Shown one piece after another: positions 3,348 through 58,266 of a stretch of DNA of 64,000 nucleotides. The notes beneath the pieces were generated by a model. The model did not search any database. It saw nothing but the letters and a program-made list of their open reading frames with translations, and was not told the DNA's origin. The stretch lies in assembly GCF_057098645.1 (NCBI RefSeq), contig NZ_CM169472.1. The stretch is one strand, 5' to 3'. Position numbers and translations under genes: made by a program. Position 1 is the first letter of the stretch. Each line of letters opens with the position of its first letter.

Positions 3348-4085
3348 TTAATACTCTTTACCTGTTACACGGCTACGGTAGCTATCCCAGTTGAAGATCA
3401 CCCACAAACTGTTACCCAGGCGCATACGGTCCATCACGCGTTCGCCCAGCAACTTGGTCATCTCTTCCATATTACTATTGGTCAGCATCCCGGTTGGGCG
3501 TTTGGAAGAAGAGCGGCGATCGACGATCTGGTTGATGATCACTTTTTCGTATTTCGATTCGGTCTGCACGCCGATCTCATCGATCACCAGCAGATCAACG
3601 TTGCTCAGATCGTTAAGCAGTTGTTCTTCGCTGGTACCGCTATTCCTGAAGGTATCTTTCATCGCCGACATAATATCGGCCACGGTGATGATCAATACGG
3701 ATTTACCGCGTAGCAGCAGCTCGTTGCAGATTGCCGCCGCCAGATGGTTTTTGCCGGTTCCTGGCTTACCAGAAAAGATAAAGCTGGCGATGTTGCCGTC
3801 AAACTCTTCGACATACTGGCGCGCTTTGCTTAACGCATTCATCTGCCCTTCACACTCAACGCGATAGTTCTCAAAGGAGCAGTTCTGATGCAGTGGACGA
3901 ATACCGGAGCGGTTAAAGGTGCGCTGCATTTTCATCGCCCGATTTTCACGTTCGAGAGCGGCAGAGCGGATCGCCCCTTGTTCTTTTTGCCAGGCCAGTA
4001 GTTCTTCACCCGTTTTGAATGCGGGTTTGATATGGGCAGGCATCATTTTTTGCAGGCGTTGCATCAGGTCGCCAACGTTTTTCAT
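3348..4085 (-). CDS. dnaC: DNA replication protein DnaC (helicase loader)
   Basis: 245-aa ORF with Walker A GKPGTGKNHLAAAI; immediately downstream of dnaT. Confidence 0.92.
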   Translation of the reverse strand: MKNVGDLMQRLQKMMPAHIKPAFKTGEELLAWQKEQGAIRSAALERENRAMKMQRTFNRSGIRPLHQNCSFENYRVECEGQMNALSKARQYVEEFDGNIASFIFSGKPGTGKNHLAAAICNELLLRGKSVLIITVADIMSAMKDTFRNSGTSEEQLLNDLSNVDLLVIDEIGVQTESKYEKVIINQIVDRRSSSKRPTGMLTNSNMEEMTKLLGERVMDRMRLGNSLWVIFNWDSYRSRVTGKEY

Positions 4086-9812: not shown

Positions 9813-10844
9813 TTAACCTTTCTTCGCCTGGAGGGTCATAATGGCGCGATACACCTTGAAGCGCCCGGTTTGCGCGATAACTTCATGGAAGCCAAATGTC
9901 TCATCCAGCACGTCCGGGTAAGGCAGGAAGGCGTTCGCTACAATTCGCAGCTCGCCGCCGCTATTAAGATGACGCACCGCGCCGCGAATCAGCGTTTGCG
10001 CCGCATCCAGGCTGGTTTGCATCCCATCGTGGAACGGCGGGTTGGAGATGATCATATCAAAACGACCTTTCACCTCGGAAAAGACGTTGCTGGCAAAGAC
10101 TTCACCTTCAACACCGTTGGCCGCAAGCGTTGCACGGCTGGCTTCTACCGCCGGGGCAGAGACATCGCACAGAGTGAGACGAATTTTCGGCGAATGGCGC
10201 GCAAAGGCAACCGAAAGCACGCCCGCGCCACAGCCGACATCCAGCACTTTACCTTTCGTGTGCGGAGTTAACGTTGAGAGCAGCAACTGGCTACCGACAT
10301 CCAGACCGTCGCGGCTAAACACGCCAGGCAGCGTTTTGACCGTCAGGCCATCGACGCTGTATTCGCCCCAGAATTTATCGGCATCAAATACCGGCTGTTT
10401 TTCCAGACGACCAAAATAGAGGCCACAGCGACGAGCGCTGTCGACTTTATTCAACGGCGCATAATCTGCCAGCATCTGCTCGGCGCTGCGCACGCCGCTG
10501 CGGTTCTCGCCAACGACAAAAATATCTGTCCCCACTGGCAGCAGAGAAAGTAAATTCATCAACTGGAACTGGGCTTCCGGTTTGTTCTTCGGCCAGTAGT
10601 AAATCAGCGTATCGCAATCTGCGACATCATCCGCCGTGGCGACCAGGCTAAAACGGGCGTTATCCCCCATCTGGCGGCTTAACACCTGCCAATGGTGGAA
10701 TTGCTGGGTATGAGCACGGCTGGCCGCGGTATCTAAACGCGCGGGCAGGTCATCCTGTAAGTCTCCGGCAAACAGAATACGGCTTTGTTCGAAATCATCA
10801 CTGTGACGCAGCAAGACTTCACTTGCCGGGGTAAATGCAGACAT
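9813..10844 (-). CDS. rsmC: 16S rRNA m2G1207 methyltransferase RsmC
   Basis: 343-aa ORF with a SAM-binding motif ([12 protein letters not shown]) and NPPFH motif. Confidence 0.9.
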
Positions 10845-10946
10845 GGAATGCTCCTCAATTGATACTGGCGGCGATTATAGCCATATGTTGGCGCGGTATC
10901 GACGAATTTGCTATATTTGCGCCCCTGACAACAGGAGCGATTCGCT

Positions 10947-11360
10947 ATGACATCCCGACGAGACTGGCAGTTACAGCAACTGGGCATTACCCAGTGGTCG
11001 CTGCGTCGCCCTGGCGCGTTGCAGGGGGAGATTGCCATTGCGATCCTGGCACACGTCCGTCTGGTGATGGTGGCAAACGATCTTCCCGCCCTGACTGATC
11101 CTTTAGTGAGCGATGTTCTGCGTGCATTAACCGTCAGCCCCGATCAAGTGCTGCAACTGACGCCAGAAAAAATCGCGATGCTGCCGCAAGGCAGTCGCTG
11201 CAACAGCTGGCGGTTGGGTACTGACGAACCGCTATCACTGGAAGGCGCTCAGGTGGCATCACCGGCGCTCACCGAATTACGGGCAAACCCAACGGCACGC
11301 GCCGCGTTATGGCAACAAATTTGCACATATGAACACGATTTCTTCCCTCGAAACGACTGA
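10947..11360 (+). CDS. holD: DNA polymerase III psi subunit
   Basis: 137-aa ORF MTSRRDWQLQQLGITQWSLRRP...; co-oriented with and overlapping rimI. Confidence 0.9.
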   Translation: MTSRRDWQLQQLGITQWSLRRPGALQGEIAIAILAHVRLVMVANDLPALTDPLVSDVLRALTVSPDQVLQLTPEKIAMLPQGSRCNSWRLGTDEPLSLEGAQVASPALTELRANPTARAALWQQICTYEHDFFPRND

Positions 11361-11775
11361 TTTACCAGCGGCTTACCACATTGAACAACGCGCCCACGCC
11401 TTTCCGTGGAGTGAAAAAACCTTTGCCAGCAACCAGGGCGAGCGTTATCTCAACTTTCAGTTAACGCAAAACGGCAAAATGGCGGCGTTTGCGATTACGC
11501 AAGTGGTGCTGGATGAAGCTACATTGTTCAATATTGCGGTCGATCCTGACTATCAGCGTCAGGGATTGGGAAGGGCGCTGCTGGAACATCTGATCGACGA
11601 ACTGGAAAAACGCGGCGTGGCGACACTATGGCTGGAAGTCCGTGCCTCAAATGCTGCCGCCATTGCCCTGTACGAAAGTTTAGGCTTTAACGAGGCGACG
11701 ATTCGCCGCAATTACTACCCCACCACGGACGGTCGCGAAGACGCCATCATCATGGCGTTGCCAATCAGTATGTAA
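11329..11775 (+). CDS. rimI: Ribosomal-protein-S18 alanine N-acetyltransferase RimI
   Basis: 148-aa GNAT-fold ORF ([21 protein letters not shown]). Confidence 0.9.
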
Positions 11776-11789
11776 GACAAGGTGGAATA

Positions 11790-12467
11790 ATGAAGTGGGA
11801 CTGGATTTTCTTTGATGCCGATGAAACGCTGTTTACCTTTGACTCATTCACCGGCCTGCAGCGGATGTTTCTTGATTACAGCGTCAACTTTACCGCTGAA
11901 GATTTTCAGGACTATCAGGCCGTTAACAAGCCACTGTGGGTGGATTATCAAAACGGCGCGATCACTTCATTACAGCTTCAGCACGGGCGTTTCGAGAGCT
12001 GGGCCGAACGGCTGAAAGTTGAAGCAGGCTTGCTTAACGATGCCTTTATTAATGCGATGGCGGAAATCTGTACGCCGTTGCCGGGCGCGGTTTCTCTGCT
12101 TAACGCCATTCGTGGCAACGCTAAAATCGGCATCATCACCAACGGTTTTAGCGCCTTGCAGCAAGTGCGTCTGGAACGGACGGGCCTGCGTGATTACTTC
12201 GATTTGCTGGTGATTTCCGAAGAAGTTGGCGTTGCCAAACCGAATAAGAAAATTTTCGATTATGCGCTGGAACAGGCGGGCAATCCTGACCGTTCACGCG
12301 TGCTGATGGTTGGCGACACTGCCGAGTCCGATATTCTCGGTGGCATCAACGCCGGGCTTGCGACCTGCTGGCTGAATGCGCACAATCGCGAGCAACCAGA
12401 AGGCATCGCGCCCACCTGGACCGTTTCTTCGTTGCACGAACTGGAGCAGCTCCTGTGTAAACACTGA
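11790..12467 (+). CDS. yjjG: HAD-family pyrimidine 5'-nucleotidase YjjG
   Basis: 225-aa ORF with the HAD motif FFDADETLF near the N-terminus. Confidence 0.9.
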
Positions 12468-12557
12468 TTGCCTCCCCCCCGTTGATGGGTAAAATAGCCG
12501 CAATTTTTCGTTTTCAACAAGCGCGGCGCGATGCCGCTTACTCAAGAAGAAAGAATT

Positions 12558-12622
12558 ATGACGTTGTCTCCTTATTTGCAAGAGGTGGCGAAGCGCCGCA
12601 CTTTTGCCATTATTTCTCACCC
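12558..12622 (+). pseudogene. prfC: Native 5' end of prfC ([22 protein letters not shown]...) cut off by prophage integration
   Basis: atgacgttgtctccttatttgcaagaggtggcgaagcgccgcacttttgccattatttctcaccc encodes the canonical PrfC N-terminus, then reading diverges into phage DNA at 12623. Confidence 0.8.
12609..12622. other. attL core (attatttctcaccc), identical 14-bp copy at attR
   Basis: Exact 14-bp identity with 55730..55743; chromosomal sequence on the left, phage sequence on the right. Confidence 0.7.
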
Positions 12623-12852: not shown

Positions 12853-14091
12853 ATGGCGCTGTCTGATGCGTGGTTGCGTTCAGTCGTTGGAAAGGAACGT
12901 GATAAGGTTTTGGTTAAATCCGATCGTGATGGTCTGTCTGTCAGAGTATCACCGAAAGGTCGCGTAGTGTTCCAATATCGTTATCAATGGGCAGGGAAAG
13001 GTGAGCGCCTTGATATCGGAACTTACCCGGCAACTGGATTAAAAGAGGCCAGAGAAGAAGTTATCCGTCTCCGTGGTGAACTCGAGTCAAACCGCAATCC
13101 ACGATTAGTCAAGCAGGCTGAAAAACGAAAAGCTACTGAAGCTATGACGGTAGAGTCTGTGATCCGTGCCTGGTATGAAGCATATTGTGTAAAAAATAAA
13201 AAAGGTTCTGAACAGATACTCCGCTCGTTTGAGCTGCACCTGTTCTCTAAAATCGGGAATATCCCTCACGATGCAGCTACATTGCATGATTGGTTAGAAG
13301 TCCTGGAGCCTCTTAGCACTAAGACTCCAGCAATAGCAGACCGATTGCTAATTAACGCAAAGCAGGCCCATGTCTGGGCGTATAAGAGAAAGCTCATTGA
13401 AACTCGCCCGCTGTCGGATATCACGGGTAAAGATATGGATATCCGTAAAGGTCAGAAGAAACGGTTTCTGACACATGATGAAATTAAAATCCTTTATGCT
13501 GCGATCGATGGTTCTCGAATGGTTCCCAAATACCGGGCCTTCATTAAACTATTGCTGCATTTCGGCTGTCGTAGTTCAGAGCTGATTACTGCCAGGGTGG
13601 ATGATTTTGATTTCATTAATAAGGTATGGACTGTACCGCCAGAACGACATAAGACAGGTGATATAACAGGCGAACCGCTAAAGCGCCCCATTATTGAACC
13701 GGTTGAAGAGCTTATAAAATACGTTATCTCTATGAACAACGGTTCCGATATGCTTTTTACCAAGGAAGGAAGCAAGGAGCCAGTTGGTCGGACATCATTG
13801 CAGTCGCTGCCTTACAATTTAATGCAGTACGCATGGCGGCGTTTGGGGTATCAATTTCCTCATTGGTCTCTTCATGATTTGAGACGAACAGCACGAACAA
13901 ACTTTTCTGATCTTACTGCGCCTCATATTGCTGAAATAATGCTCGGTCATAAACTGCCAGGGGTATGGCAAGTTTATGATAAGAGCGATTATCTAGAAGA
14001 ACAGCGTAAAGCCTATCAGGCATGGTGGGATAGGGTTGATTCGATTCTTACTTACACTAATTTAGGTTCCAACAGACAGCCTATTGAATAA
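12853..14091 (+). CDS. int: Phage tyrosine integrase (P4-type, N-terminal arm-binding DUF4102-like domain)
   Basis: 412 aa; catalytic signature HDLRRTARTN ... LGHK ... VYDKSDY; adjacent to attL. Confidence 0.9.
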   Translation: MALSDAWLRSVVGKERDKVLVKSDRDGLSVRVSPKGRVVFQYRYQWAGKGERLDIGTYPATGLKEAREEVIRLRGELESNRNPRLVKQAEKRKATEAMTVESVIRAWYEAYCVKNKKGSEQILRSFELHLFSKIGNIPHDAATLHDWLEVLEPLSTKTPAIADRLLINAKQAHVWAYKRKLIETRPLSDITGKDMDIRKGQKKRFLTHDEIKILYAAIDGSRMVPKYRAFIKLLLHFGCRSSELITARVDDFDFINKVWTVPPERHKTGDITGEPLKRPIIEPVEELIKYVISMNNGSDMLFTKEGSKEPVGRTSLQSLPYNLMQYAWRRLGYQFPHWSLHDLRRTARTNFSDLTAPHIAEIMLGHKLPGVWQVYDKSDYLEEQRKAYQAWWDRVDSILTYTNLGSNRQPIE

Positions 14092-17206: not shown

Positions 17207-17568
17207 TATGCTCCAGCCTCCGGCGCTTTGGGTATTACTGCCCAGTGAGTGATATTGAAGTTTTCAAGGTCCCCGACCTGAAATGTCCACTGCCATTCTC
17301 CGGTTTCTTTTTGTCCCCAGGTGTACCAGAGAGAACGCCAGCCAATCAGCCAGCCTTCTCCGTTAGCATCAAATAACAGAACACTTTCATTTGCTGGTGG
17401 CAGTTCAGCTGACACTGGTATTATTTTGTTTTCCAGTGCCGCACATTTAGCTTCAAGCGCGTCGAATTTACGTACCAGGTACTCAGCATTTGTTTCGTTC
17501 ACTTTCAGATCTCGCGGTACACATTTCCCGCGAAGAAACCCTTCCATTTCGAAAACATTCATGCGCAT
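17206..17568 (-). CDS. Phage early protein, hypothetical (YfdS-like position)
   Basis: 120-aa ORF translationally coupled to its neighbours in the early-left operon. Confidence 0.5.
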   Translation of the reverse strand: MRMNVFEMEGFLRGKCVPRDLKVNETNAEYLVRKFDALEAKCAALENKIIPVSAELPPANESVLLFDANGEGWLIGWRSLWYTWGQKETGEWQWTFQVGDLENFNITHWAVIPKAPEAGA

Positions 17569-21702: not shown

Positions 21703-22535
21703 ACAGTTTAACGGCAAATAACCGTTTGTCGCAACAGCTGGTGGTCAGCGTCGCTGAACACCTGTTGTTACGGCATGAATGCAGATTACCAAATCACCTG
21801 GCTGTAAGTAACCACAGAGAACTTTACCTGACTGTGGGGGGCGAGTTGTGCAGGAACTTAACCGCTGGTTTCGTGACGGAAGAGGGCTTTATGTCCATGT
21901 TATTCGTTGGGAGCCAGAAACACAGCGCGTTATCTATCTTCGCAAAGACTACCCGCATGAGTGCTTTAGTCCTTTGTGGAAATTCAGGCGTGATTTTGTT
22001 GAGTGTGAAGGACCACCAGCACATTGATTCTGCCATTCCGGGACGTTACACTGTTCAGGCACCTTATAAAGCGGGTGCCGGGATTGGCGTCCTGGAAATG
22101 TTATCGGCGATATATGACGCGCCAGCGTCTTTTTTATCGTCTGCGTCTGTGCACACCCAAATTATGGTGGGCTGGACGGGGGCACCGAAAGGTGCGCCGG
22201 TTTCCGATAACGCCGGTTACGCCAACCCCGTTCAGTTCACCACCAGCGAAATTGGCGTTTCCGGTGGTGAAGGTAATTCACTGTTATCGGAGGCTGCCAT
22301 CATGGCTACTGTCCCAGCCCTCACTCGTCTGAATGATGAAGACTTACATAAACTCAGTTATGTAACAACTGCACTACGTGCTCTGCGCAAGGTAACTCTT
22401 TCGGATCCGCAGGCGCATCAAGTTCTGGTAGAAACCCTTCTTAACTTGCAGGCTGAACGTATTCGTCTGGCGGATAAGGCTAATTTTCATATTCACCGTC
22501 TCCTGAATATCAGCGGAGGGCATCGTCATGCTTAA
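21699..22535 (+). CDS. Hypothetical phage protein (replication-module position)
   Basis: 278-aa ORF translationally coupled between the CII-like and O-like genes; no motif recognised. Confidence 0.5.
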   Translation: MNSLTANNRLSQQLVVSVAEHLLLRHECRLPNHLAVSNHRELYLTVGGELCRNLTAGFVTEEGFMSMLFVGSQKHSALSIFAKTTRMSALVLCGNSGVILLSVKDHQHIDSAIPGRYTVQAPYKAGAGIGVLEMLSAIYDAPASFLSSASVHTQIMVGWTGAPKGAPVSDNAGYANPVQFTTSEIGVSGGEGNSLLSEAAIMATVPALTRLNDEDLHKLSYVTTALRALRKVTLSDPQAHQVLVETLLNLQAERIRLADKANFHIHRLLNISGGHRHA

Positions 22536-22764
22536 TCCGTTGATCCTCAATATTTGCCGTTTGCTTCAGCGTAAAAAAACATCAATTCCTACAGTTGGGC
22601 AGTGGTACACCACACCTGCAGGGCATGTTCTACGTGTTAGCCTGGTTGACCGTGAATGCCAGAAGGTGATTTGTGAACCGCTGGGCCGTAATTACCGCGT
22701 CAGTATGCCGCTTATAGCCTTTCGCTCCGGAAAAAACATGAAGCATCTCGGAGGTGCAGCATGA
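22528..22764 (+). CDS. Hypothetical small phage protein
   Basis: 78-aa ORF with overlapping stop/start coupling to its neighbours. Confidence 0.4.
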   Translation: MLNPLILNICRLLQRKKTSIPTVGQWYTTPAGHVLRVSLVDRECQKVICEPLGRNYRVSMPLIAFRSGKNMKHLGGAA

Positions 22765-46518: not shown

Positions 46519-49500
46519 ATGGGTAAAGGCAGCAGTAAGGGGCATACCCCGCGCGAAGCGAAGGACAACCTGAAATCCACGCAGTTGCTGAGTGTGATTG
46601 ATGCCATCAGTGAAGGGCCGGTTGAAGGTCCGGTGGATGGATTAAAAAGCGTGCTGCTGAACAGTACGCCGGTGCTGGACAGTGAGGGGAATACCAACAT
46701 CGCCGGTGTCACGGTGGTGTTCCGGGCTGGTGAGCAGGAGCAGACTCCGCCGGAGGGATTTGAATCCTCCGGCTCCGAGACGGTGCTGGGTACGGAAGTG
46801 AAATACGACACGCCGATCACCCGCACCATCACGTCGGCAAACATCGACCGTCTGCGCTTTACCTTCGGTGTACAGGCACTGGTGGAAACCACCTCAAAGG
46901 GTGACAGGAATCCGTCGGAAGTCCGTCTGCTGGTTCAGATACAACGTAACGGTGGCTGGGTGACGGAAAAAGACATCACCATTAAGGGCAAAACCACCTC
47001 GCAGTATCTGGCCTCGGTGGTGGTGGGTAGCCTGCCGCCGCGCCCGTTTAATATCCGGATGCGCAGGATGACGCCGGACAGCACCACAGACCAGCTGCAG
47101 AACAAAACGCTCTGGTCGTCATACACCGAAATCATCGATGTGAAACAGTGCTACCCGAACACGGCACTGGTCGGCGTGCAGGTGGACTCGGAGCAGTTCG
47201 GCAGCCAGCAGGTGAGCCGTAATTATCATCTTCGCGGGCGCATTCTGCAGGTGCCGTCGAACTATAACCCGCAGACGCGGCAATACAGCGGTATCTGGGA
47301 CGGAACGTTAAAGCCAGCATACAGCAACAACATGGCCTGGTGTCTGTGGGATATGCTGACCCACCCGCGCTACGGCATGGGGAAACGTCTTGGTGCGGCG
47401 GATGTGGACAAATGGGCGCTGTATGTCATCGGCCAGTATTGCGACCAGTCGGTGCCGGACGGTTTTGGCGGCACGGAGTCGCGCATCACCTGTAACGCTT
47501 ACCTGACCACACAGCGTAAGGCGTGGGATGTTCTCAGTGATTTCTGCTCGGCGATGCGCTGTATGCCGGTATGGAACGGGCAGACGCTGACGTTCGTGCA
47601 GGACCGACCGTCGGATAAGGTGTGGACCTATAACCGCAGTAATGTGGTGATGCCGGATGATGGCGCGCCGTTCCGCTACAGTTTCAGCGCCCTGAAGGAC
47701 CGCCATAATGCCGTTGAGGTGAACTGGATTGACCCGAATAACGGCTGGGAGACGGCGACAGAGCTTGTGGAGGACACGCAGGCCATTCTCCGTTACGGTC
47801 GTAACGTCACGAAGATGGATGCCTTTGGCTGTACCAGCCGGGGGCAGGCACACCGCGCCGGGCTGTGGCTGATTAAAACGGAGCTGCTGGAAACGCAGAC
47901 TGTGGACTTCAGCGTGGGCGCAGAAGGGCTTCGCCATGTACCGGGCGATGTCATTGAAATCTGCGATGATGACTATGCGGGTATCAGCGTCGGCGGGCGC
48001 GTGCTTGCGGTAAACAGCCAGACCCGGACACTGACGCTCGACCGTGAAATCATGCTGCCATCCTCCGGAACCACGCTGATAAGCCTGGTTGACGGAAATG
48101 GCAATCCGGTCAGCGTGGAGGTCCAGTCCGTCACCGACGGCGTGAAGGTGAAAGTGAGCCGTGTTCCTGACGGCGTTGCCGAATACAGCGTGTGGGGGCT
48201 GAAGCTGCCGACGCTGCGCCAGCGCCTGTTCCGCTGCGTGAGTATCCGTGAGAACGATGACGGCACGTATGCCATCACCGCCGTGCAGCATGTACCGGAG
48301 AAAGAAGCCATCGTGGATAACGGGGCGCACTTTGACGGTGACCAGAGCGGCACGGTGAATGGTGTCACGCCGCCAGCAGTGCAGCACCTGACCGCCGAAG
48401 TCACTGCAGACAGCGGGGAATATCAGGTGCTGGCGCGATGGGACACACCGAAGGTGGTGAAGGGCGTGAGCTTCCTGCTCCGTCTGACCGTAACAGCGGA
48501 TGACGGCAGTGAGCGGCTGGTCAGCACGGCCCGGACGACGGAAACCACTTACCGCTTCACACAACTGGCGCTGGGGAACTACAGGCTGACAGTCCGGGCA
48601 GTAAATGCGTGGGGGCAGCAGGGCGATCCGGCGTCGGTATCGTTCCGGATTGCCGCACCGGCAGCGCCGTCGCGGATTGAGCTGACGCCGGGCTATTTTC
48701 AGATAACCGCCACGCCGCATCTTGCGGTTTATGATCCGACGGTACAGTTTGAGTTCTGGTTCTCGGAAAAGCGGATTGCGGATATCAGGCAGGTTGAAAC
48801 CACAGCACGCTATCTTGGCACGGCGCTGTACTGGATAGCCGCCAGTATCAATATCAAACCGGGCCATGATTATTACTTTTATATCCGCAGTGTGAACACC
48901 GTTGGCAAATCGGCATTCGTGGAGGCTGTTGGTCAGCCGAGTGATGATGCATCCGGTTATCTGGATTTTTTCAAAGGCGAGATAGGGAAAACCCATCTGG
49001 CTCAGGAGCTGTGGACGCAGATTGATAACGGTCAGCTTGCGCCTGACCTGGCTGAAATCAGGACGTCCATTACGGATGTCAGCAATGAAATCACGCAGAC
49101 CGTCAATAAGAAACTGGAAGACCAGAGTGCTGCAATTCAGCAGATACAGAAGGTTCAGGTTGATACAAATAATAACCTGAACAGCATGTGGGCTGTGAAG
49201 CTGCAGCAGATGCAGGACGGACGCCTTTATATCGCGGGTATTGGTGCCGGTATTGAGAATACCCCTGACGGCATGCAGAGTCAGGTGCTGCTGGCGGCGG
49301 ACAGGATTGCGATGGTTAATCCTGCGAATGGCAACACAAAACCGATGTTTGTTGGTCAGGGCGATCAGATATTCATGAACGACGTGTTCCTGAAACGCCT
49401 GACGGCTCCCACCATTACCAGCGGTGGAAATCCGCCGGCATTTTCCCTGACACCAGACGGAAAGCTGACCGCTAAAAATGCGGATATCAGCGGTAATGTG

Positions 49501-50001
49501 AATGCAAATTCAGGGACGCTCAACAATGTCACGATTAATGAAAACTGTCAGATTAAGGGGAAACTGTCAGCCAATCAGATTGAAGGCGATATTGTCAAAA
49601 CGGTCAGCAAGTCTTTCCCCTGCACGAACAGTTATGCCAGTGGCACCATCACGGTAAGAATCAGTGATGATCAGAAATTTGACCGGCAGGTCATGATACC
49701 GCCAGTGTTATTCCGCGGTGGTAAGCATGAGAATTTCAACAGTAATAACCAACAGTCATACTGGTATTCAACCTGCCGGTTAAGAGTGACCCGCAATGGT
49801 CAGGAGATTTTTAAGCAGTCCACGACGGATGCTCAGGGCGTATTTTCCTCAGTTATAGATATGCCTGCCGGACAGGGGACGCTGACACTGACATTCACCG
49901 TATCTTCATCAGGAGCGAATAACTGGACACCAACAACCAGTATCAGCGATCTGCTGGTTGTGGTGATGAAAAAATCCACAGCAGGTATCAGTATCAGCTG
50001 A
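46519..50001 (+). CDS. Central tail fiber / host specificity protein J (lambda gpJ-like)
   Basis: 1160-aa ORF following I; size, position and fibronectin-like repeats. Confidence 0.9.
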
Positions 50002-50018
50002 ATTTTATAACCCAGAAC

Positions 50019-50043
50019 GGGCGTCAGAAATGACGCCTTTTTT
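50019..50043 (+). terminator. Intrinsic terminator after J
   Basis: ggcgtcagaaatgacgcc followed by ttttttatt. Confidence 0.7.
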
Positions 50044-50067
50044 ATTGCAGAAAAGCGAGAGGTAATT

Positions 50068-50667
50068 ATGCGTAAACTTTATGCCGCCATTTTGTCCGCA
50101 GCCATTTGTCTGGCCGTATCCGGTGCGCCTGCATGGGCGTCTGAACATCAGTCCACGCTGAGCGCGGGGTATCTTCATGCCCGGACGAACGTTCCCGGCG
50201 GTGATGATCTGAACGGGATTAACGTGAAATACCGTTATGAGTTTACGGACACACTGGGGATGGTGACGTCGTTCAGCTATGCAGGAGACAAGAATCGCCA
50301 GATTACCCGTTACAGCGATACCCGCTGGCATGAAGATTCCATTCGTAACCGCTGGTTCAGCGTAATGGCGGGGCCGTCTGTGCGCGTGAATGAATGGTTC
50401 AGCGCGTATGCGATGGCGGGTGTGGCTTACAGCCGTGTGTCGACTTTCTCCGGGGATTATCTCCGCGTAACTGACAACAAGGGGAAAAAGCACGATGTGC
50501 TGACCGGAAGTGATGACGGTCGCCACAGCAACACGTCTCTGGCGTGGGGAGCTGGCGTGCAGTTTAACCCGACCGAATCCGTGGCCATTGATGTCGCTTA
50601 TGAAGGCTCCGGCAGTGGTGACTGGCGCACTGACGGTTTCATCGTGGGTGTCGGTTATAAATTCTGA
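50068..50667 (+). CDS. lom: Lom outer-membrane beta-barrel protein (Ail/Lom family moron)
   Basis: Signal peptide and beta-barrel ending ...GVGYKF; position after J as in lambda. Confidence 0.88.
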
Positions 50668-50695
50668 TTAGCCAGGTAACACAGTGTTATGACAG

Positions 50696-50720
50696 CCCGC
50701 CGGTTCAGGCGGGCTTTTTT
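50696..50720 (+). terminator. Intrinsic terminator after lom
   Basis: gcccgccggttcaggcgggc followed by tttttt. Confidence 0.7.
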
Positions 50721-50725
50721 GTGGG

Positions 50726-53700
50726 GTGAATATGGCAGTAAAGATTTCAGGTGTACTGAAAGACGGCACAGGAAAACCGGTACAGAACTGCACAATCCAG
50801 CTGAAAGCAAAACGTAACAGCACCACGGTGGTGGTGAACACGCTGGCCTCAGAAAATCCGGATGAAGCCGGGCGTTACAGCATGGACGTTGAGTACGGGC
50901 AGTACAGCGTTATTCTGTTGGTGGAGGGATTCCCGCCGTCACATGCCGGGACCATCACCGTGTATGAAGATTCCCGACCCGGTACGCTGAATGATTTTCT
51001 CGGTGCCATGACGGAGGATGATGCCCGTCCTGAGGCACTGCGCCGTTTTGAACTGATGGTGGAAGAGGTGGCGCGTAACGCGTCCGCGGTGGCACAGAAC
51101 ACGGCAGCCGCGAAGAAGTCAGCCAGCGATGCCGGCACATCAGCCCGTGAGGCGGCAACCCATGCGACTGATGCTGCAGGCTCAGCACGCGCAGCCAGCA
51201 CGTCAGCCGGACAGGCCGCGTCGTCGGCTCAGTCAGCGTCTTCCAGCGCAGGAACGGCATCAACAAAGGCCAGTGAAGCATCGAAAAGTGCTGCTGCTGC
51301 AGAGTCCTCAAAAAGCGCGGCGGCTACCAGTGCCGGTGCGGCGAAAACGTCAGAAACGAATGCTGCAGCGTCACAAAAATCTGCAGCCACTTCTGCATCC
51401 ACCGCGACCACGAAAGCGTCAGAAGCTGCCACCTCAGCCCGGGATGCAGCGGCCTCAAAAGAGGCAGCGAAATCATCAGAAACGAGCGCAGCCTCGAGCG
51501 CCAGTAATGCCGCTTCCTCGGCAACAGCGGCAGGAAATTCCGCGAAGGCGGCAAAAACGTCCGAGACGAACGCCAGGTCTTCTGAAACGGCAGCGGAACA
51601 GAGCGCCTCAGCTGCGGCAGACTCTGAGACAACAGCTGCATCATCGGCCCGTGAGGCGTCCATTAAGGCAGAGGAGGCAGCAGTCAGTGCCACCGCCGCC
51701 GGAAAATCGGCAGAAAGCGCCGCATCATCCGCTTCAACAGCCACAACGAAGGCTGGCGAAGCCACTGAACAGGCCAGCGCAGCAGCGAGGTCTGCTTCCG
51801 CAGCGAAGACATCCGAAACGAACGCGAAAGCGTCGGAAACCAGCGCAGAATCCTCAAAAACGGCTGCCGCATCGTCCGCCAGTTCGGCGGCGTCATCGGC
51901 ATCATCGGCGTCTGCTTCAAAAGATGAGGCGACCAGACAGGCGTCAGCAGCGAGGGGCAGCGCCACGACGGCATCCACGAAGGCGACAGAGGCTGCTGGC
52001 AGTGCGGCAGCGGCAGCACAGAGCAAAAGTACGGCAGAATCCGCAGCAACGCGCGCCGAGACAGCAGCAAAACGGGCAGAGGATATTGCATCCGCCGTGG
52101 CGCTTGAGGATGCGAGCACGACGAAAAAGGGGATAGTACAGCTCAGCAGTGCGACCAACAGCACTTCCGAGTCACTGGCGGCAACGCCAAAAGCCGTTAA
52201 GGCCGCGTATGACCTGGCTAACGGGAAATACACCGCACAGGATGCAACGACAGCACAGAAAGGGATAATCCAGCTAAGCAGCGCGACCAACAGCACGTCT
52301 GAAACGCTGGCGGCAACGCCAAAGGCAGTAAAAGCAGCCAATGACAATGCTGAGAAACGTCTGCAGAAAGATCAGAACGGTGCGGATATCCCTGGCAAAG
52401 ACACCTTTACGAAAAATATTGGTGCCTGCCGTGCCTTCGGTGGGTCAGTAAGCACAACAACAGGAAACTGGACGACTGCACAGTTTATCGAGTGGCTGGA
52501 TTCTCAGGGAGCATTTAACCATCCATACTGGATGTGCAAGGGTTCCTGGTCTTATGGCAATAATAAAATCATTACTGATACTGGCTGCGGTAATATTCAT
52601 CTCGCCGGAGCTGTCATTGAAGTAATGGGGATAAAGTCAGCGATGACGATCCGCATTACCACACCGACCACCTCCACTGGTGGTGGAACAACTAACGCCC
52701 AGTTTACCTATATTAATCACGGAACAGATTATTCACCTGGCTGGCGAAGGGACTATAACTCCAGAAATAAGCCAACGGCATCAGAGATCGGGGCGTTACC
52801 GTCAGGTGGAACAGCAGTATCATCAGTTAATCTGTCTTCAAAAGGTCGGGTAACCGCGCTGACAGACAATACGCAGGGGGCAACAGGTCTTGAGTTATAC
52901 GAGGTGTATAACAACGGATATCCAACAGCGTATGGAAATATCATTCACCTGAAAGGGATGACAGCCGTTGGCGAAGGTGAGTTACTCATCGGCTGGAGTG
53001 GTACAAGCGGTGCTCATGCTCCGGCATTTATTCGTTCACGACGGGATACGACCGACGCAAACTGGTCGCCGTGGGCGCAGCTTTACACCTCGGCTCATCC
53101 TCCTGCAGAGTTTTATCCAGTCGGTGCACCAATCCCGTGGCCATCAGATACCGTTCCGTCTGGTTATGCCCTGATGCAGGGGCAGACTTTTGACAAATCT
53201 GCTTACCCGAAACTTGCAGCCGCTTATCCGTCAGGCGTGATCCCTGATATGCGTGGCTGGACGATTAAGGGCAAGCCCGCCAGTGATCGAGCCGTATTGT
53301 CTCAGGAACAGGACGGCATTAAATCACACACCCACAGCGCCAGCGTATCCAGTACGGATTTGGGGACGAAAACCACATCGTCGTTTGATTACGGCACTAA
53401 ATCCACGAATAACACTGGTGCGCATACCCATAGTGTTAGCGGTACGGCTGCTTCAGCCGGTGCACATACCCATTCGATGACATTTGTTTCAGGTGGTTCC
53501 AGTGGTGCTCCGGGAAGTGGATCACCTGATTACTCTAAATACAGTGTTAACACTTCTTCTGCAGGCGCTCATACGCACTCTGTATCGGGTACTGCTGCAA
53601 GCGCAGGTGCACACGCACATACTGTCGGTATTGGTGCTCATACGCACTCCGTTGCGATTGGTTCACATGGACATACCATCACCGTTAACGCTGCTGGTAA

Positions 53701-53755
53701 CGCGGAAAACACCGTCAAAAACATCGCATTTAACTATATTGTGAGGCTTGCATAA
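50726..53755 (+). CDS. Side tail fiber protein (Stf-like) with a long Ala/Ser/Thr-rich repeat region and C-terminal GAHTHS repeats
   Basis: 1009 aa; residues ~120-470 are low-complexity repeats; C-terminal [20 protein letters not shown] tail-fibre repeat motifs. Confidence 0.85.
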
Positions 53756-54336
53756 TGGCATTCAGAATGAGTGAACAACCACGGACCATAAAAATTTATA
53801 ATCTGCTGGCCGGAACTAATGAATTTATTGGTGAAGGTGACGCATATATTCCGCCTCATACAGGTCTGCCTGTAAACAGTACCTATATTGCACCGCCAGA
53901 TATTCCGGCTGGTTTCGTGGCTGTTTTCAACAGTGATGAGTCATCGTGGCATCTCGTTGAAGATCATCGGGGTAAAACGGTTTATGACGTGGCTTCCGGC
54001 GACGCGTTATTTATTTCTGAACTCGGTCCGTTACCGGAAAATGTTACCTGGTTATCGCCGGAAGGGGAGTTTCAGAAGTGGAACGGCACAGCCTGGTTGA
54101 AGGATACGGAAGCAGAAAAACTGTTCCGGATCCGGGAGGCGGAAGAAACAAAAAACAACCTGATGCAGGTAGCCAGTGAGCATATTGCGCCGCTTCAGGA
54201 TGCTGCAGATCTGGAAATTGCAACGGAGGAAGAAATCTCGTTGCTGGAAGCATGGAAAAAGTATCGGGTATTGCTGAACCGTGTTGATACATCAACTGCA
54301 CCTGATATTGAGTGGCCAGCAGCACCTGTAGGATAA
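53755..54336 (+). CDS. tfa: Tail fiber assembly protein (Tfa)
   Basis: 193 aa following and coupled to stf; C-terminal ...[23 protein letters not shown]... Confidence 0.85.
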
Positions 54337-54434
54337 AACAAAAACTTTATATAGAGTGCTCTTTTTACAATGTCAGATAAATGCTGGCCGAAATGTAATT
54401 CATTAGAAGTAAAAAACAGAATGGTTTGAGGGTG

Positions 54435-54480
54435 TGTCATCCCTTTATTATTAATAGTGAAAGGGATGACATTCTTTTTT
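54435..54480 (+). terminator. Strong intrinsic terminator after the tail fiber operon
   Basis: tgtcatccctttattattaatagtgaaagggatgaca followed by ttctttttt. Confidence 0.75.
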
Positions 54481-54676
54481 AAGGAGTGTCTTTTTTATCG
54501 GAATATAAGTTGAGATAATGTTTAACTCGATTATAAAAATGTTTTTTCTTATCTCTTGGAATGCTTACTATTATATGCATTATGGGGCTTGTGTTTGCCG
54601 ATAATTTAGCTGATGCATACATTGAAGCAAGGAATTCAATATCAGTATTGTCAAAATTAAAACTTTCTCCATCCAT
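54479..54676 (-). CDS. Hypothetical small ORF in an AT-rich insert
   Basis: 65-aa ORF in very AT-rich DNA; no motif; may be non-coding. Confidence 0.25.
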   Translation of the reverse strand: MDGESFNFDNTDIEFLASMYASAKLSANTSPIMHIIVSIPRDKKKHFYNRVKHYLNLYSDKKDTP

Positions 54677-54996
54677 TTCAATTCCTTATGTGTTTGGCTC
54701 GGTATACTGTATCCCATGAGATTTTACGTAAATTGTCATATCTAATATTGCAATTATAATTGTAGCTAATTATTTTAAATTAGGTGAAAGTTTATTGCGA
54801 ATGATTAACTCGGAAAAAAAGATTTCTCACGGTTAGTAAGTATATTAGGTCAGTATTCAGATATGAGTAGTGTTAACGACTAAATTTGCAATCACATATA
54901 GATTTTTGTTCTAATAAAGATGTTTTATTTGGCGATTCGTCAAGCATCTCCACTTAAGCAATCGTATATATTAAGAGTGCAAAAGAGAAGGGACAA

Positions 54997-55095
54997 CGTT
55001 GCTCGCACTCTGGAATAAATATCGGGTATTGTTAAAGTGTGGTGATACATAATTGTACGGGATATTGAGTGGCCTGAAGTCCCAGTCATTGAGTA
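54997..55095 (+). pseudogene. Remnant of a tail fiber assembly gene 3' end
   Basis: ...ctggaataaatatcgggtattgttaaagtgtggtgatacat... is ~70% identical to the tfa 3' end at 54255..54336; reading frame broken. Confidence 0.6.
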
Positions 55096-55213
55096 ATCTT
55101 TTCGTGATATGCCGCAGAAACGTTGTATGCAGGAACGTGCTGCGGCTAACTGGTGAACTTTCGATAGTGCGGGTATTGAATGATTTCCAGCCGTTACCGA
55201 TTTTACGTGCTAA

Positions 55214-55462
55214 TTAGTGAACAAACCACTCGTCAGCAGACTCCCAGGTATCTTTCAGAGTTTCCTGAACAAAAGTTTTAGCTGAATCTTTATCGGCAGT
55301 GCGCGTAACAGAAAGGCCATCGTTGCTGGTGGTTTTTACGATCACCTCTACATCGTCATAACGCTTACTGATGCGTCGAGTTAATTCTTCCTTTAACGCA
55401 TCCACAGCACCGTTTGGCATTTTAGTCATTTTCTCTTTGGCTATGCAGATCTCAATACGCAT
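55214..55462 (-). CDS. DinI-like protein (SOS-regulated RecA modulator family)
   Basis: 82 aa, [11 protein letters not shown]...[16 protein letters not shown] closely parallels chromosomal DinI. Confidence 0.85.
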
Positions 55463-55477
55463 AAAAATCCCTCTACA

Positions 55478-55521
55478 CTGTGTTTGTATACAGTATTATT
55501 TTTAACTGTATGAATAAACAG
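55478..55521. promoter_or_regulatory. Two tandem LexA boxes (CTGT-N8-ACAG) in the dinI-like promoter
   Basis: CTGTgtttgtatACAG at 55478..55493 and CTGTatgaataaACAG at 55506..55521, directly upstream of the minus-strand dinI-like start. Confidence 0.8.
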
Positions 55522-55546
55522 TGTCAATAGAACAAAGATTGCTGCA

Positions 55547-55662
55547 TGTACAAATGTTCTTTGGCTACAAATACACCTACTGATCATGTTCTGCTATGCT
55601 CTGATACCTCCAAAATGTACAATCAGCGGCATGAATTTTTCTTTGTACATATGATTGTACAT
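55547..55662. promoter_or_regulatory. TGTACA motif cluster on the attR arm / phage-supplied prfC promoter region
   Basis: TGTACA at 55547, 55616, 55644 and 55657; mirrors the cluster at attL. Confidence 0.4.
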
Positions 55663-55681
55663 AATCAAAGAGACAACAATT

Positions 55682-57268
55682 ATGACAAGCCTTTTGGCCG
55701 CAGAGGTAGCGAAAAGAAGAACCTTTGCAATTATTTCTCACCCGGACGCCGGTAAGACTACCATCACCGAGAAGGTGCTGCTGTTCGGACAGGCCATTCA
55801 GACTGCCGGTACAGTAAAAGGCCGTGGTTCCAACCAGCACGCTAAGTCGGACTGGATGGAGATGGAAAAGCAGCGTGGGATCTCCATTACTACGTCTGTG
55901 ATGCAGTTTCCGTATCACGATTGCCTGGTTAACCTGCTCGACACCCCGGGGCACGAAGACTTCTCGGAAGATACCTACCGTACCCTGACGGCGGTGGACT
56001 GCTGCCTGATGGTTATCGACGCCGCAAAAGGTGTTGAAGATCGTACCCGTAAGCTGATGGAAGTTACCCGTCTGCGCGACACGCCGATCCTCACCTTTAT
56101 GAACAAACTTGACCGTGATATCCGCGACCCGATGGAATTGCTCGATGAAGTTGAGAACGAGCTGAAAATTGGCTGCGCACCGATCACCTGGCCAATTGGC
56201 TGCGGCAAGCTGTTTAAAGGCGTTTACCACCTTTATAAAGATGAAACCTATCTCTATCAGAGCGGTAAAGGGCACACCATTCAGGAAGTCCGCATTGTTA
56301 AAGGGCTGAATAACCCGGATCTCGATGCTGCGGTTGGTGAAGATCTGGCACAGCAGCTGCGTGACGAACTGGAACTGGTTAAAGGCGCGTCTAACGAGTT
56401 CGACAAAGAGCTGTTCCTTGCGGGCGAAATCACTCCGGTATTCTTCGGTACTGCGCTGGGTAACTTCGGCGTTGATCATATGCTGGATGGCCTGGTGGAG
56501 TGGGCGCCTGCGCCGATGCCGCGTCAGACCGATACCCGTACCGTAGAAGCGAGCGAAGATAAATTTACCGGCTTCGTATTTAAAATTCAGGCCAACATGG
56601 ACCCGAAACACCGCGACCGCGTGGCGTTTATGCGTGTGGTGTCCGGTAAATATGAAAAAGGCATGAAACTGCGCCAGGTGCGCACTGCGAAAGATGTGGT
56701 GATCTCCGACGCGCTGACCTTTATGGCGGGTGACCGTTCGCACGTTGAAGAAGCGTATCCGGGCGATATCCTCGGCCTGCACAACCACGGCACCATTCAG
56801 ATCGGCGACACCTTTACCCAGGGTGAGATGATGAAGTTCACCGGTATTCCGAACTTCGCACCAGAACTGTTCCGTCGTATCCGCCTGAAAGATCCGCTGA
56901 AGCAAAAACAGCTGCTCAAAGGGCTGGTACAGCTTTCCGAAGAGGGCGCGGTGCAGGTGTTCCGTCCAATCTCCAACAACGATCTGATCGTTGGTGCAGT
57001 TGGTGTGCTGCAGTTTGATGTGGTGGTAGCGCGCCTGAAGAGCGAATACAACGTTGAAGCAGTGTATGAGTCAGTCAACGTTGCCACTGCCCGCTGGGTA
57101 GAATGTGCAGACGCGAAGAAATTCGAAGAGTTCAAGCGTAAGAACGAAAGCCAACTGGCGCTTGATGGCGGCGATAACCTCGCTTACATCGCTACCAGCA
57201 TGGTCAACCTGCGCCTGGCACAGGAACGTTATCCGGACGTTCAGTTCCACCAGACCCGCGAGCATTAA
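55682..57268 (+). CDS. prfC: Peptide chain release factor 3 with a phage-supplied replacement N-terminus
   Basis: Translational GTPase with G1 motif [12 protein letters not shown]; N-terminus [16 protein letters not shown]... replaces native [17 protein letters not shown]... Confidence 0.9.
55730..55743. other. attR core (attatttctcaccc)
   Basis: Exact copy of 12609..12622; phage sequence on the left, native prfC on the right. Confidence 0.7.
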
Positions 57269-57660
57269 TTCTTGCCTCCAGGGCGCGGTAGCCGCTGCGC
57301 CCTGTCAATTTCCCTTCCTTATTAGCCGCTTACGGAATGTTCTTAAAACATTCACTTTTGCTTATGTTTTCGCTGATATCCCGAGCGGTTTCAAAATTGT
57401 GAACTATATTTAACAAAGTGATGACATTTCTGACGGCGTTAAATACCGTTCAATGCGTAGATATCAGTATCTAAAGCCGTCGATTGTCATTCTACCGATA
57501 TTAATAACTGATTCAGAGGCTGTAATGGTCGTTATTCATCACTCATCGCTTTTGTGATGGCGACCATTGACTTCTGTAGAGGGTGAAGTCTCTCCCTATT
57601 CAGCAATGCAACCTCGTGTTGCCAGGCTCAAATTACGAGCAAACATACAGGAATAAATCG

Positions 57661-58266
57661 ATGACTATGACAAGACTGAAGATTTCGAAAACTCTGCTGG
57701 CTGTAATGTTGACCTCTGCCGTCGCGACCGGCTCTGCCTACGCGGAAAACAACGCGCAGACTACCAATGAAAGCGCAGGGCAAAAAGTCGATAGCTCTAT
57801 GAATAAAGTCGGTAATTTCATGGATGACAGCGCCATCACCGCGAAAGTGAAGGCGGCCCTGGTGGATCATGACAACATCAAGAGCACCGATATCTCTGTA
57901 AAAACCGATCAAAAAGTCGTGACCCTGAGCGGTTTCGTTGAAAGCCAGGCCCAGGCCGAAGAGGCAGTGAAAGTGGCGAAAGGCGTTGAAGGGGTGACCT
58001 CTGTCAGCGACAAACTGCACGTTCGCGACGCTAAAGAAGGCTCGGTGAAGGGCTACGCGGGTGACACCGCCACCACCAGTGAAATCAAAGCCAAACTGCT
58101 GGCGGACGATATCGTCCCTTCCCGTCATGTGAAAGTTGAAACCACCGACGGCGTGGTTCAGCTCTCCGGTACCGTCGATTCTCAGGCACAAAGTGACCGT
58201 GCTGAAAGTATCGCCAAAGCGGTAGATGGTGTGAAAAGCGTTAAAAATGATCTGAAAACTAAGTAA
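57661..58266 (+). CDS. osmY: Osmotically inducible periplasmic protein OsmY (two BON domains)
   Basis: [28 protein letters not shown] signal peptide then BON repeats. Confidence 0.9.

Follow-up and report, generated by a model that had tools for sequence, protein, structure and literature searches.

A probable accessory-gene slot behind the tail fibre genes of an mEp460/cdtI-type lambdoid prophage inserted at prfC

The ends of lambda-like prophages, downstream of the tail fibre genes, have been described as exchangeable effector loci (PMC8112680, citing Tobe et al.). For instance, the O157:H7 prophage inserted at ssrA carries, in this order, espW, a gene for a DUF1076 protein, espM2, a tfa fragment that is annotated as a pseudogene, a short end-piece, dinI, and ssrA. 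Similarly, the cytolethal distending toxin-converting phage cdtI (NC_009514) carries an nleH-like gene, cif, integrase fragments, a tfa relic, cdtABC, the end-piece, and dinI, and the K-12 prophage DLP12 carries tfaD, ybcY (on the minus strand), and tfaX. In lambda itself, morons and b-region genes such as lom, bor, and ea47 are extra genes of deviant G+C content placed between shared blocks; the moron concept is reportedly due to Hendrix and colleagues.

Here, the corresponding region of another prophage was analysed in a 64,000 nt stretch of contig NZ_CM169472.1 (assembly GCF_057098645.1), referred to as the window. The prophage spans approximately 43 kb of the window and is inserted at the 5' end of prfC: the K-12 sequence from rsmC to yjjG together with the start of prfC matches positions 10144-12622, and that from prfC to osmY matches 55702-57765. 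The 42 bp common to the two flank matches are the attachment-site duplication, and the start of prfC has been replaced by a new one, supplied by the phage, at 55682. An integrase-sized ORF lies at 12853-14091 on the plus strand, and the right arm includes a gpJ-like gene (46519-50001), a lom-like gene (50068-50667), and the side tail fibre gene stf (50726-53755). The backbone relative used for comparison, phage mEp460, whose own annotation describes it as resembling the cdt-converting phage cdtI, is 95-98% identical to the prophage over 17218-49015 and 94% identical over 49984-51573. The final gene annotated ahead of the prfC junction is dinI-like (55214-55462, minus strand; Pfam DinI PF06183, E = 1e-19; DinI-like family protein in the PGAP annotation). 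Two motifs resembling LexA boxes were read from the sequence upstream of it (55478-55493 and 55506-55521), and the 21-bp sequence reported as attB within a prophage (PMC8112680) was not seen by eye in this region. Overall, the DNA between tfa and dinI is probably a slot for accessory genes (morons, or cargo), located close to the right end of this mEp460/cdtI-type lambdoid prophage and bounded by an ordinary mosaic junction.

The tail fibre assembly gene tfa (53755-54336, plus strand) is intact, encodes 193 amino acids (Pfam Caudo_TAP, PF02413; E = 2.9e-43), and is 95.7% identical to lambda tfa and 96.7% identical to K-12 tfaQ. Approximately 100 nt 3' of its stop codon (54336), a hairpin (approximately 54434-54472) is followed by a U-run (54473-54480) on the plus strand in the manner of an intrinsic terminator. 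The segment 54425-54500 folds with -23.6 kcal/mol (z = -5.0), and none of 200 shuffled sequences folded as well, in keeping with an earlier reading made from the sequence only, which had described a strong terminator after tfa. The element at 54434-54480 is therefore predicted to terminate the tail fibre transcript. Its hairpin is kept in one of the two other alleles described below (94% identical), and is not found in the second (84% identical).

The same sequence-only reading had reported a very AT-rich stretch behind the terminator, and this description also holds: the G+C content is 0.302 in 54481-54996, compared with 0.474 in tfa and 0.503 in the prophage as a whole. The AT-rich DNA forms a 660 bp module without assigned strand (54337-54996, G+C 0.303) that is absent from lambda, mEp460, cdtI, and K-12. 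It sits between two blocks that are contiguous in related phages. In lambda and in strain ML35, the end-piece directly follows tfa, and in mEp460, stf is followed by a tfa relic and the end-piece with no insert. The module thus has both the position and the composition (G+C 0.30 against 0.50 in the backbone) of a moron, and it lies where exchangeable effector loci are found, at the end of a lambda-like prophage and downstream of the fibre genes.

To the right of the module lies a relic, the remains of an older tfa 3' end (54997-55095, plus strand; G+C 42%). Positions 54997-55074 are 78.5% identical to tfa positions 54239-54317 over 79 nt (blastn E = 7e-14), and the Smith-Waterman score of relic against tfa is 71, compared with 16.9 +/- 2.1 for shuffled sequences (z = 25.7; none of 500 shuffles reached the score). 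The degenerate tfa copy of approximately 100 bp that had been read from the sequence is thus real, with the coordinates and orientation proposed for it, and the alignment that had been suggested as its check bears it out. The similarity reaches the TAA of the relic at 55093-55095. However closely it resembles the end of tfa, only the last 99 nt or so of the gene are left, and a 1-nt deletion after GATACAT has produced a frameshift and a premature in-frame TAA. Searching with the Tfa protein (tblastn) gave matches only within 54987-55087, as two HSPs in different frames: a 21-residue stretch matched to EGTTLLALWNKYRVLLKCGDT, and the residues DIEWP. The relic is similar to, collinear with, and in the same orientation as tfa, and it has lost its coding capacity, as a pseudogene fragment of the Caudo_TAP family (PF02413) would. 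No tfa similarity was found upstream of approximately 54987 (z <= 1.5 for 54700-54996). A backward extension of the relic to 54873, as drawn by a cmscan alignment to the Rfam model IS009, was rejected: the added part has no similarity above that of shuffled sequences and is an effect of global alignment.

On its other side, the similarity continues for approximately 50 nt past the stop codon of the relic into sequence that normally stands behind tfa. The match to lambda (22457-22609, 81% identity) spans from within tfa to 52 nt beyond its stop codon, and the same is seen with K-12 tfaD and with strain ML35. Because the similarity runs past the stop codon, the relic is the true 3' end of a former tfa together with its native downstream DNA. 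This downstream DNA, the end-piece (55096-55213, plus strand), is the natural post-tfa DNA of lambda-like phages. It contains an inverted repeat (CCGCAG-N22-CTGCGG, 55112-55145), and 5,396 of 5,426 complete E. coli genomes carry it, at 17,249 places in all; the hairpin element occurs in about three copies per E. coli genome.

To place the relic, distances among twelve tfa 3' ends were tabulated. The relic is 76% identical to the tfa of the window and 75-79% identical to intact tfa genes and to the fresh relics of mEp460 and cdtI, so that it is approximately 22-25% diverged from every intact tfa compared. Its identity to two other old relics, K-12 tfaX and relic 1 of locus L002, is 70%. In contrast, it is 91-99% identical to the relics that stand beside the same AT-rich module in two other loci (L002 and L004). 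The relic therefore clusters with the cargo relics rather than with intact tfa genes; it is older than the fibre exchange in this prophage and came in with the cargo. The mEp460 relic, which is 97% identical to lambda tfa, is in contrast recent and independent.

Comparison with mEp460 shows where that exchange took place. Homology to mEp460 stops at 51573, approximately 850 nt into stf, and none is found over 51574-54193; it resumes at the tfa 3'-end sequences, and firmly so from the hairpin at 55112. Across this right-hand boundary, the identity to mEp460 is 75% in the relic, falls to 31% in 55096-55111, and recovers to 88% in the hairpin, 91% over the remaining end-piece, and 94% in dinI. 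At the same place, mEp460 has a different fibre C-part, no intact tfa, and a fresh tfa relic, after which come the end-piece and dinI. A block of approximately 3.5 kb (51574-55111, plus strand), comprising the C-part of stf, tfa, the cargo, and the old relic, has thus been imported relative to the mEp460 lineage, and the imported fibre C-part is of lambda/Qin type. The past exchange of a tail fibre module that had been proposed from the sequence is therefore supported by mapped breakpoints. The relic had been taken as a sign of that exchange, and this part of the proposal needs revision: the exchange occurred, although the relic was not left behind by it, being already attached to the cargo, as the comparison with the relics of two other contexts indicates. 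An invertible fibre segment of the Gin/Cin/Pin type does not account for the arrangement, as the tfa copies are direct rather than inverted, and no recombinase ORF is present between tfa and dinI.

The segment 54337-55213 is present in approximately 590 of the 5,426 complete E. coli genomes, in three alleles only. An allele approximately 99.9% identical to the window occurs in 10 genomes, and in the one inspected it also adjoins prfC. A second allele (93.7% identical) occurs in two genomes, and in the one inspected it adjoins an AraC-family gene sized like K-12 appY. The third (approximately 84% identical) occurs in 578 genomes; the one inspected is a Qin-type prophage, in which the module lies beside a truncated ydfJ. 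Whichever of the three alleles is present, a tfa 3' end flanks the module on its left, and the old relic with the end-piece flanks it on its right. Additionally, the Qin-type prophage inspected has two cargos stacked, with a relic after each. The AT-rich part had no match among the sequenced phages of a phage database, and a 21-mer scan that took one genome from each species gave no match to the module outside E. coli. In IMG/VR, only three prophage-derived contigs were found, with approximately 74% protein identity, as for the Qin-type allele.

The module contains a probable gene for a 65-residue orphan protein, here called ORF65 (54479-54676, minus strand), which PGAP annotates as a hypothetical protein (WP_000348577.1) in identical genomes. 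The earlier view that the stretch holds only doubtful small ORFs is therefore too pessimistic, as this annotated ORF behaves like a real gene. A Shine-Dalgarno sequence (AAGGA, 54683-54687, minus strand) stands 6 nt before its ATG and is invariant in the three alleles. A scan also gave a candidate sigma-70 promoter (TTCACC-18-TACAAT, 54759-54788, minus strand) with 9 of 12 consensus matches, of which the -10 element is invariant and the -35 element is TTCACC or TTCACT across the alleles. The ORF65 stop codon sits in the complement of the terminator U-run, and the hairpin that follows it has no U-run on the minus strand. Between dinI and ORF65, no minus-strand terminator was predicted, and SOS-dependent read-through into ORF65 from the dinI promoter, with its LexA-box-like motifs, is possible. 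In contrast, read-through into dinI and ORF65 across the attachment site from an early leftward promoter, as for the lambda b-region genes, was rejected, as the integrase genes here and in cdtI are on the plus strand and the geometry is unlike that of lambda.

Each of the two main ORF65 protein alleles is found on at least 1000 contigs, mostly from E. coli and some from Salmonella. Beyond its own alleles, searches of 1.8 billion cluster representatives and of 5.8 billion clustered proteins gave no homologue, and the relatives of ORF65 are confined to the ends of Enterobacteriaceae prophages. There was no match in Pfam, PHROG, NCBIfam, PADLOC, or PDB sequences, and no paralogue in lambda, mEp460, cdtI, the K-12 prophage ends, or the rest of the window. 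With the three alleles as input, AlphaFold2 modelled a three-helix protein (pLDDT 82.8, pTM 0.67), and fold searches with this model returned generic helical bundles only, with no significant match. A relationship to the theta subunit of DNA polymerase III or to Hot of phage P1 (PF06440) was considered and rejected, there being neither family similarity nor a specific fold match. Similarly, nothing marks ORF65 as a type III effector, as it has no match in Pfam, NCBIfam, or PHROG and no relative among known effectors. The product of ORF65, the one credible gene of the insert, would be a cytoplasmic and probably three-helix protein.

Three other explanations of the AT-rich stretch were weighed against the view that it is a cargo module with a working gene. 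If the stretch is a pure scar, then illegitimate recombination left the AT-rich DNA behind as non-functional filler, and in ORF65 the annotation pipelines have picked up a frame that is open by chance. The lack of any family or fold assignment fits such an origin, as does the existence of frameshifted ORF65 forms (at an A-run, on approximately 46 contigs). Furthermore, the frame remained open in 16% of random-substitution trials, and an ORF in the antisense frame (ORF52, plus strand) has a dN/dS similar to that of ORF65 over their overlap (0.26 vs 0.17); since ORF52 shares third codon positions with ORF65, dN/dS cannot separate the two. ORF65 is also more diverged than its surroundings, with a dS of 0.65 between alleles against approximately 10% divergence (estimated by eye) in the upstream non-coding DNA, which indicates a mosaic history rather than simple constraint. 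On the other hand, ORF65 is intact in all three alleles, with exactly 65 codons and no indels at 21% nucleotide divergence, whereas its flanks have several indels, and the Shine-Dalgarno sequence is equally unchanged. The differences fall as 12, 10, and 20 on codon positions 1, 2, and 3, with a Nei-Gojobori dN/dS of 0.29, and random placement of the same 42 substitutions gave 27.9 +/- 2.4 amino-acid changes compared with the 21 observed (P = 0.004), in a test that draws on three alleles only and thus has little power. The ORF65 model is confident relative to that of the antisense control, which was run as a single sequence (pLDDT 64.2, pTM 0.40), and the intact forms far outnumber the broken ones. 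Therefore, a mere scar is unlikely, and ORF65 is rather likely to be a functional gene. ORF52 itself was rejected as a gene: its length varies, it has no Shine-Dalgarno sequence, and its model is poor (pLDDT 64), although its dN/dS does not discriminate it from ORF65.

The sequence-only reading had offered two further possibilities, neither of which fared well. One was a decayed alternative fibre cassette; 54337-55095 would then have been a second stf-tfa pair that has lost all recognisable sequence except its tfa end. The position of the relic downstream of tfa in the same orientation would agree with this, and the global IS009 alignment nominally reaches back to 54873. However, no stf or tfa similarity above that of shuffled sequences was found in 54337-54996, and uniform decay of fibre genes of 47-50% G+C would not lead to 30% while the adjoining relic, at 42%, stays 78% identical to tfa. 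A gene with its own translation signals runs in the opposite direction inside the stretch, there is neither an invertase nor an inverted fibre segment, and in none of the approximately 590 genomes does an intact stf-tfa pair grade into the AT-rich sequence. A decayed cassette is thus extremely improbable. The other possibility was a small toxin, such as that of a type I toxin-antitoxin system, or a small regulatory RNA within the AT-rich DNA. A hydrophobic ORF of 28 codons (ORF28, 54518-54604, plus strand) is indeed antisense to ORF65, and a near-consensus promoter-like site lies on the plus strand at 54733-54760. However, ORF28 was rejected as a gene, as it has no Shine-Dalgarno sequence, is poorly conserved (dN/dS 0.68, with non-conservative changes), and ends differently in another allele; it is not the conserved hydrophobic peptide with translation signals and antisense RNA of a type I system. 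The promoter-like site is broken by a 5-nt insertion in both other alleles. A weak match to IS009 (RF02111) at 54873-55054 scores 37.8 bits, far below the gathering score of 117, while full matches to this model are given by the 3' half of tfa (223.6 bits) and by a tfa relic between yagU and ykgJ (193.6 bits). As the full-score match is tfa coding sequence itself, the match in the relic reflects tfa similarity only. Folding gave no sign of a structured RNA (z = -0.7 to -1.2 for 54677-54996 and the end-piece), and PADLOC had no match in the region. A toxin or RNA locus is therefore very unlikely, and what the stretch holds instead is a small protein gene of unassigned role. 

A variant of the cargo explanation gives more weight to the borders. 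The tfa relic and the hairpin element of approximately 100 nt (55112-55213) may be conserved homology handles that bracket cargo and allow cassette swaps between unrelated lambdoid prophages, in which case ORF65 would be a functional, unrecognised accessory protein. Relics accompany the cargo in every context examined, the hairpin at 55112 is the exact mosaic breakpoint relative to mEp460, and the same element brackets ea47 in lambda. Nevertheless, such a dedicated role is considered doubtful, and an ordinary mosaic junction is preferred.

From the observed anatomy, homologies, mosaic breakpoints, and signs of coding in ORF65, the following arrangement and history are proposed for the accessory-gene slot. 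The late operon ends with tfa and its predicted terminator, followed by the 660-bp foreign insert of 30% G+C, in which ORF65 would be transcribed towards tfa by a weak promoter of its own and translated from a strong ribosome-binding site. Beyond the insert lie the last 99 bp of a dead, older tfa with its native downstream DNA, and then dinI. Cargo and relic form one unit, which homologous recombination has probably placed into three backgrounds (prfC, Qin/ydfJ, and DLP12/appY-like). In this genome, the 3.5-kb block would have replaced the corresponding mEp460-type DNA by crossovers in the conserved N-terminal part of stf on the left and at the conserved hairpin after the relic on the right. 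The first joining of cargo and relic may date from an earlier fibre swap whose right-hand junction was illegitimate, or from an insertion into tfa. Expression of ORF65 from the prophage would rely either on its own promoter or on read-through transcripts of the LexA-controlled dinI promoter, and the protein could act as a lysogen-benefit or phage-accessory protein.

Taken alone, the region has little significance, as it is a further example of lambda-like prophages exchanging small add-on genes behind their fibre genes. Nevertheless, the history of what had been called a scar can now be put in order: the old relic moves together with its cargo, and the 3.5-kb fibre swap, whose breakpoints are defined, is recent. 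An uncharacterised 65-residue gene, recorded on 1000 contigs or more, is also brought to notice as probably real. Additionally, the Rfam family IS009 and the ubiquitous, unannotated 100-nt element are parts of the same fossil prophage-end architecture, and annotators and small-RNA screens should take account of their origin in prophage ends. IS009 matches the 3' half of tfa, and the below-threshold score of the window relic is not evidence for an RNA gene.

The systems described at the outset can be compared part by part. In O157:H7, as here, cargo, a truncated tfa, an end-piece of approximately 100 nt, a dinI-like gene, and the attachment site follow one another; in contrast, the cargo there consists of type III effectors rather than one 65-residue orphan gene, and the O157:H7 relic is fresh (93% identical to an intact tfa), whereas that of the window is old (approximately 76-79%). 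The backbone relatives cdtI and mEp460 show the same succession of tfa relic, end-piece, and dinI, and both are without the AT-rich module: mEp460 has neither cargo nor an intact tfa, and in cdtI the nleH-like gene and cif precede the relic, with cdtABC placed between it and the end-piece. DLP12 also has an intact tfa-type gene, an oppositely oriented cargo, and a tfa fragment in the same orientation as tfa, although its cargo is a methyltransferase pseudogene and its tfaX is an independent relic, 70% identical to that of the window. The morons and b-region genes of lambda share the placement of an extra gene of deviant G+C content between common blocks, and lambda ea47 is flanked by two copies of the hairpin element found at 55112-55145, although ORF65 has no sequence relationship to any lambda gene. 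The region is thus a small, non-effector case of an already known, recurrent prophage-end architecture.

The two alleles of the AT-rich cargo module carried by the window and by Qin-type prophages have not diverged uniformly along their length. Within ORF65, the 65-codon minus-strand gene of the module (54479-54676), 21% of nucleotides differ between them, with a dS of 0.65, whereas the non-coding DNA upstream of the gene and the relic of an older tail fibre assembly gene, tfa (54997-55095), are roughly 8-10% diverged in alignments read by eye. ORF65 is thus much more diverged than the upstream non-coding DNA and relic (within 54677-55213), which suggests either that recombination has left another boundary close to where ORF65 starts or that ORF65 itself has evolved unusually fast. 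The same upstream DNA contains a plus-strand sigma-70 promoter-like site (TTGTCA-16-TATAAT; 54733-54760) that is near consensus, with 11/12 matches, and is directed at the relic. A 5-nt insertion disrupts its spacing in both other alleles of the module, and therefore it is probably a spurious promoter of AT-rich DNA.

On the left of the module, the central part of stf (51100-52350) is a long repetitive region rich in Ala, Ser, Thr and Glu, with a G+C content of 58-65% and numerous imperfect direct repeats, and the break in homology to the related phage mEp460 (51573) falls within it. On the right, near the prophage end, is a minus-strand dinI-like gene (55214-55462). Two LexA-box-like motifs (CTGT-N8-ACAG) upstream of it, at 55478-55493 and 55506-55521, suggest SOS control of this gene, which might possibly extend to read-through toward ORF65. 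The prophage is integrated within the 5' end of prfC, with 42 bp of prfC sequence duplicated (12581-12622 and 55702-55743). Phage DNA (55531-55701) provides prfC with a new upstream sequence and a new start codon (ATG at 55682), and the gene is thus intact with an altered N-terminus.

The right-hand mosaic breakpoint of the window coincides with a hairpin element (55112-55213) that begins with CCGCAG-N22-CTGCGG (55112-55145) and lies in the end-piece, the DNA naturally found 3' of tfa in lambda-like phages. As a 118-nt query (55096-55213), the end-piece gave 17,249 matches in a set of 5,426 complete E. coli genomes, 5,396 of which contain it (median of 3 copies per genome), and the majority of matches span ~100 nt starting at the hairpin. 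Almost all of 30 sampled matches lack an annotated feature there. The element itself belongs to no Rfam family and does not fold significantly, and no compensatory changes were seen by eye in the inner stem. In lambda, ea47 has the hairpin on either side.

The end-piece also occurs between yagU and ecpE, where a tfa relic, ykgJ (minus strand), the end-piece and a dinI 3' fragment follow one another in EC958 and in STN0717-20, the two genomes inspected; this locus is a fossil prophage end. The IS009 'sRNA family' (RF02111) is sequence derived from tfa, since its model scores both intact tfa, over the 3' half of the coding sequence (54098-54296; 223.6 bits), and the yagU-ykgJ tfa relic (EC958, L017 1887-2087; 193.6 bits).

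Comparable slots hold other cargo. The Qin-type prophage of APEC E12049 (L002 3315-4002) has a second stacked cargo of ~590 bp between tfaQ and a further tfa relic (3905-4002), including an unannotated, strongly hydrophobic 33-codon ORF on the minus strand (MKIQSKLIVLLNIIIAFILFELLAQKFGLSTLF; 3580-3681). In a lambdoid prophage of strain ML35 (L018 2858-4465), a gene of the McrB family directly follows tfa and the end-piece and precedes an IS3 element. Its role is probably in restriction or defence, and its position shows this slot to be open to defence genes as well.
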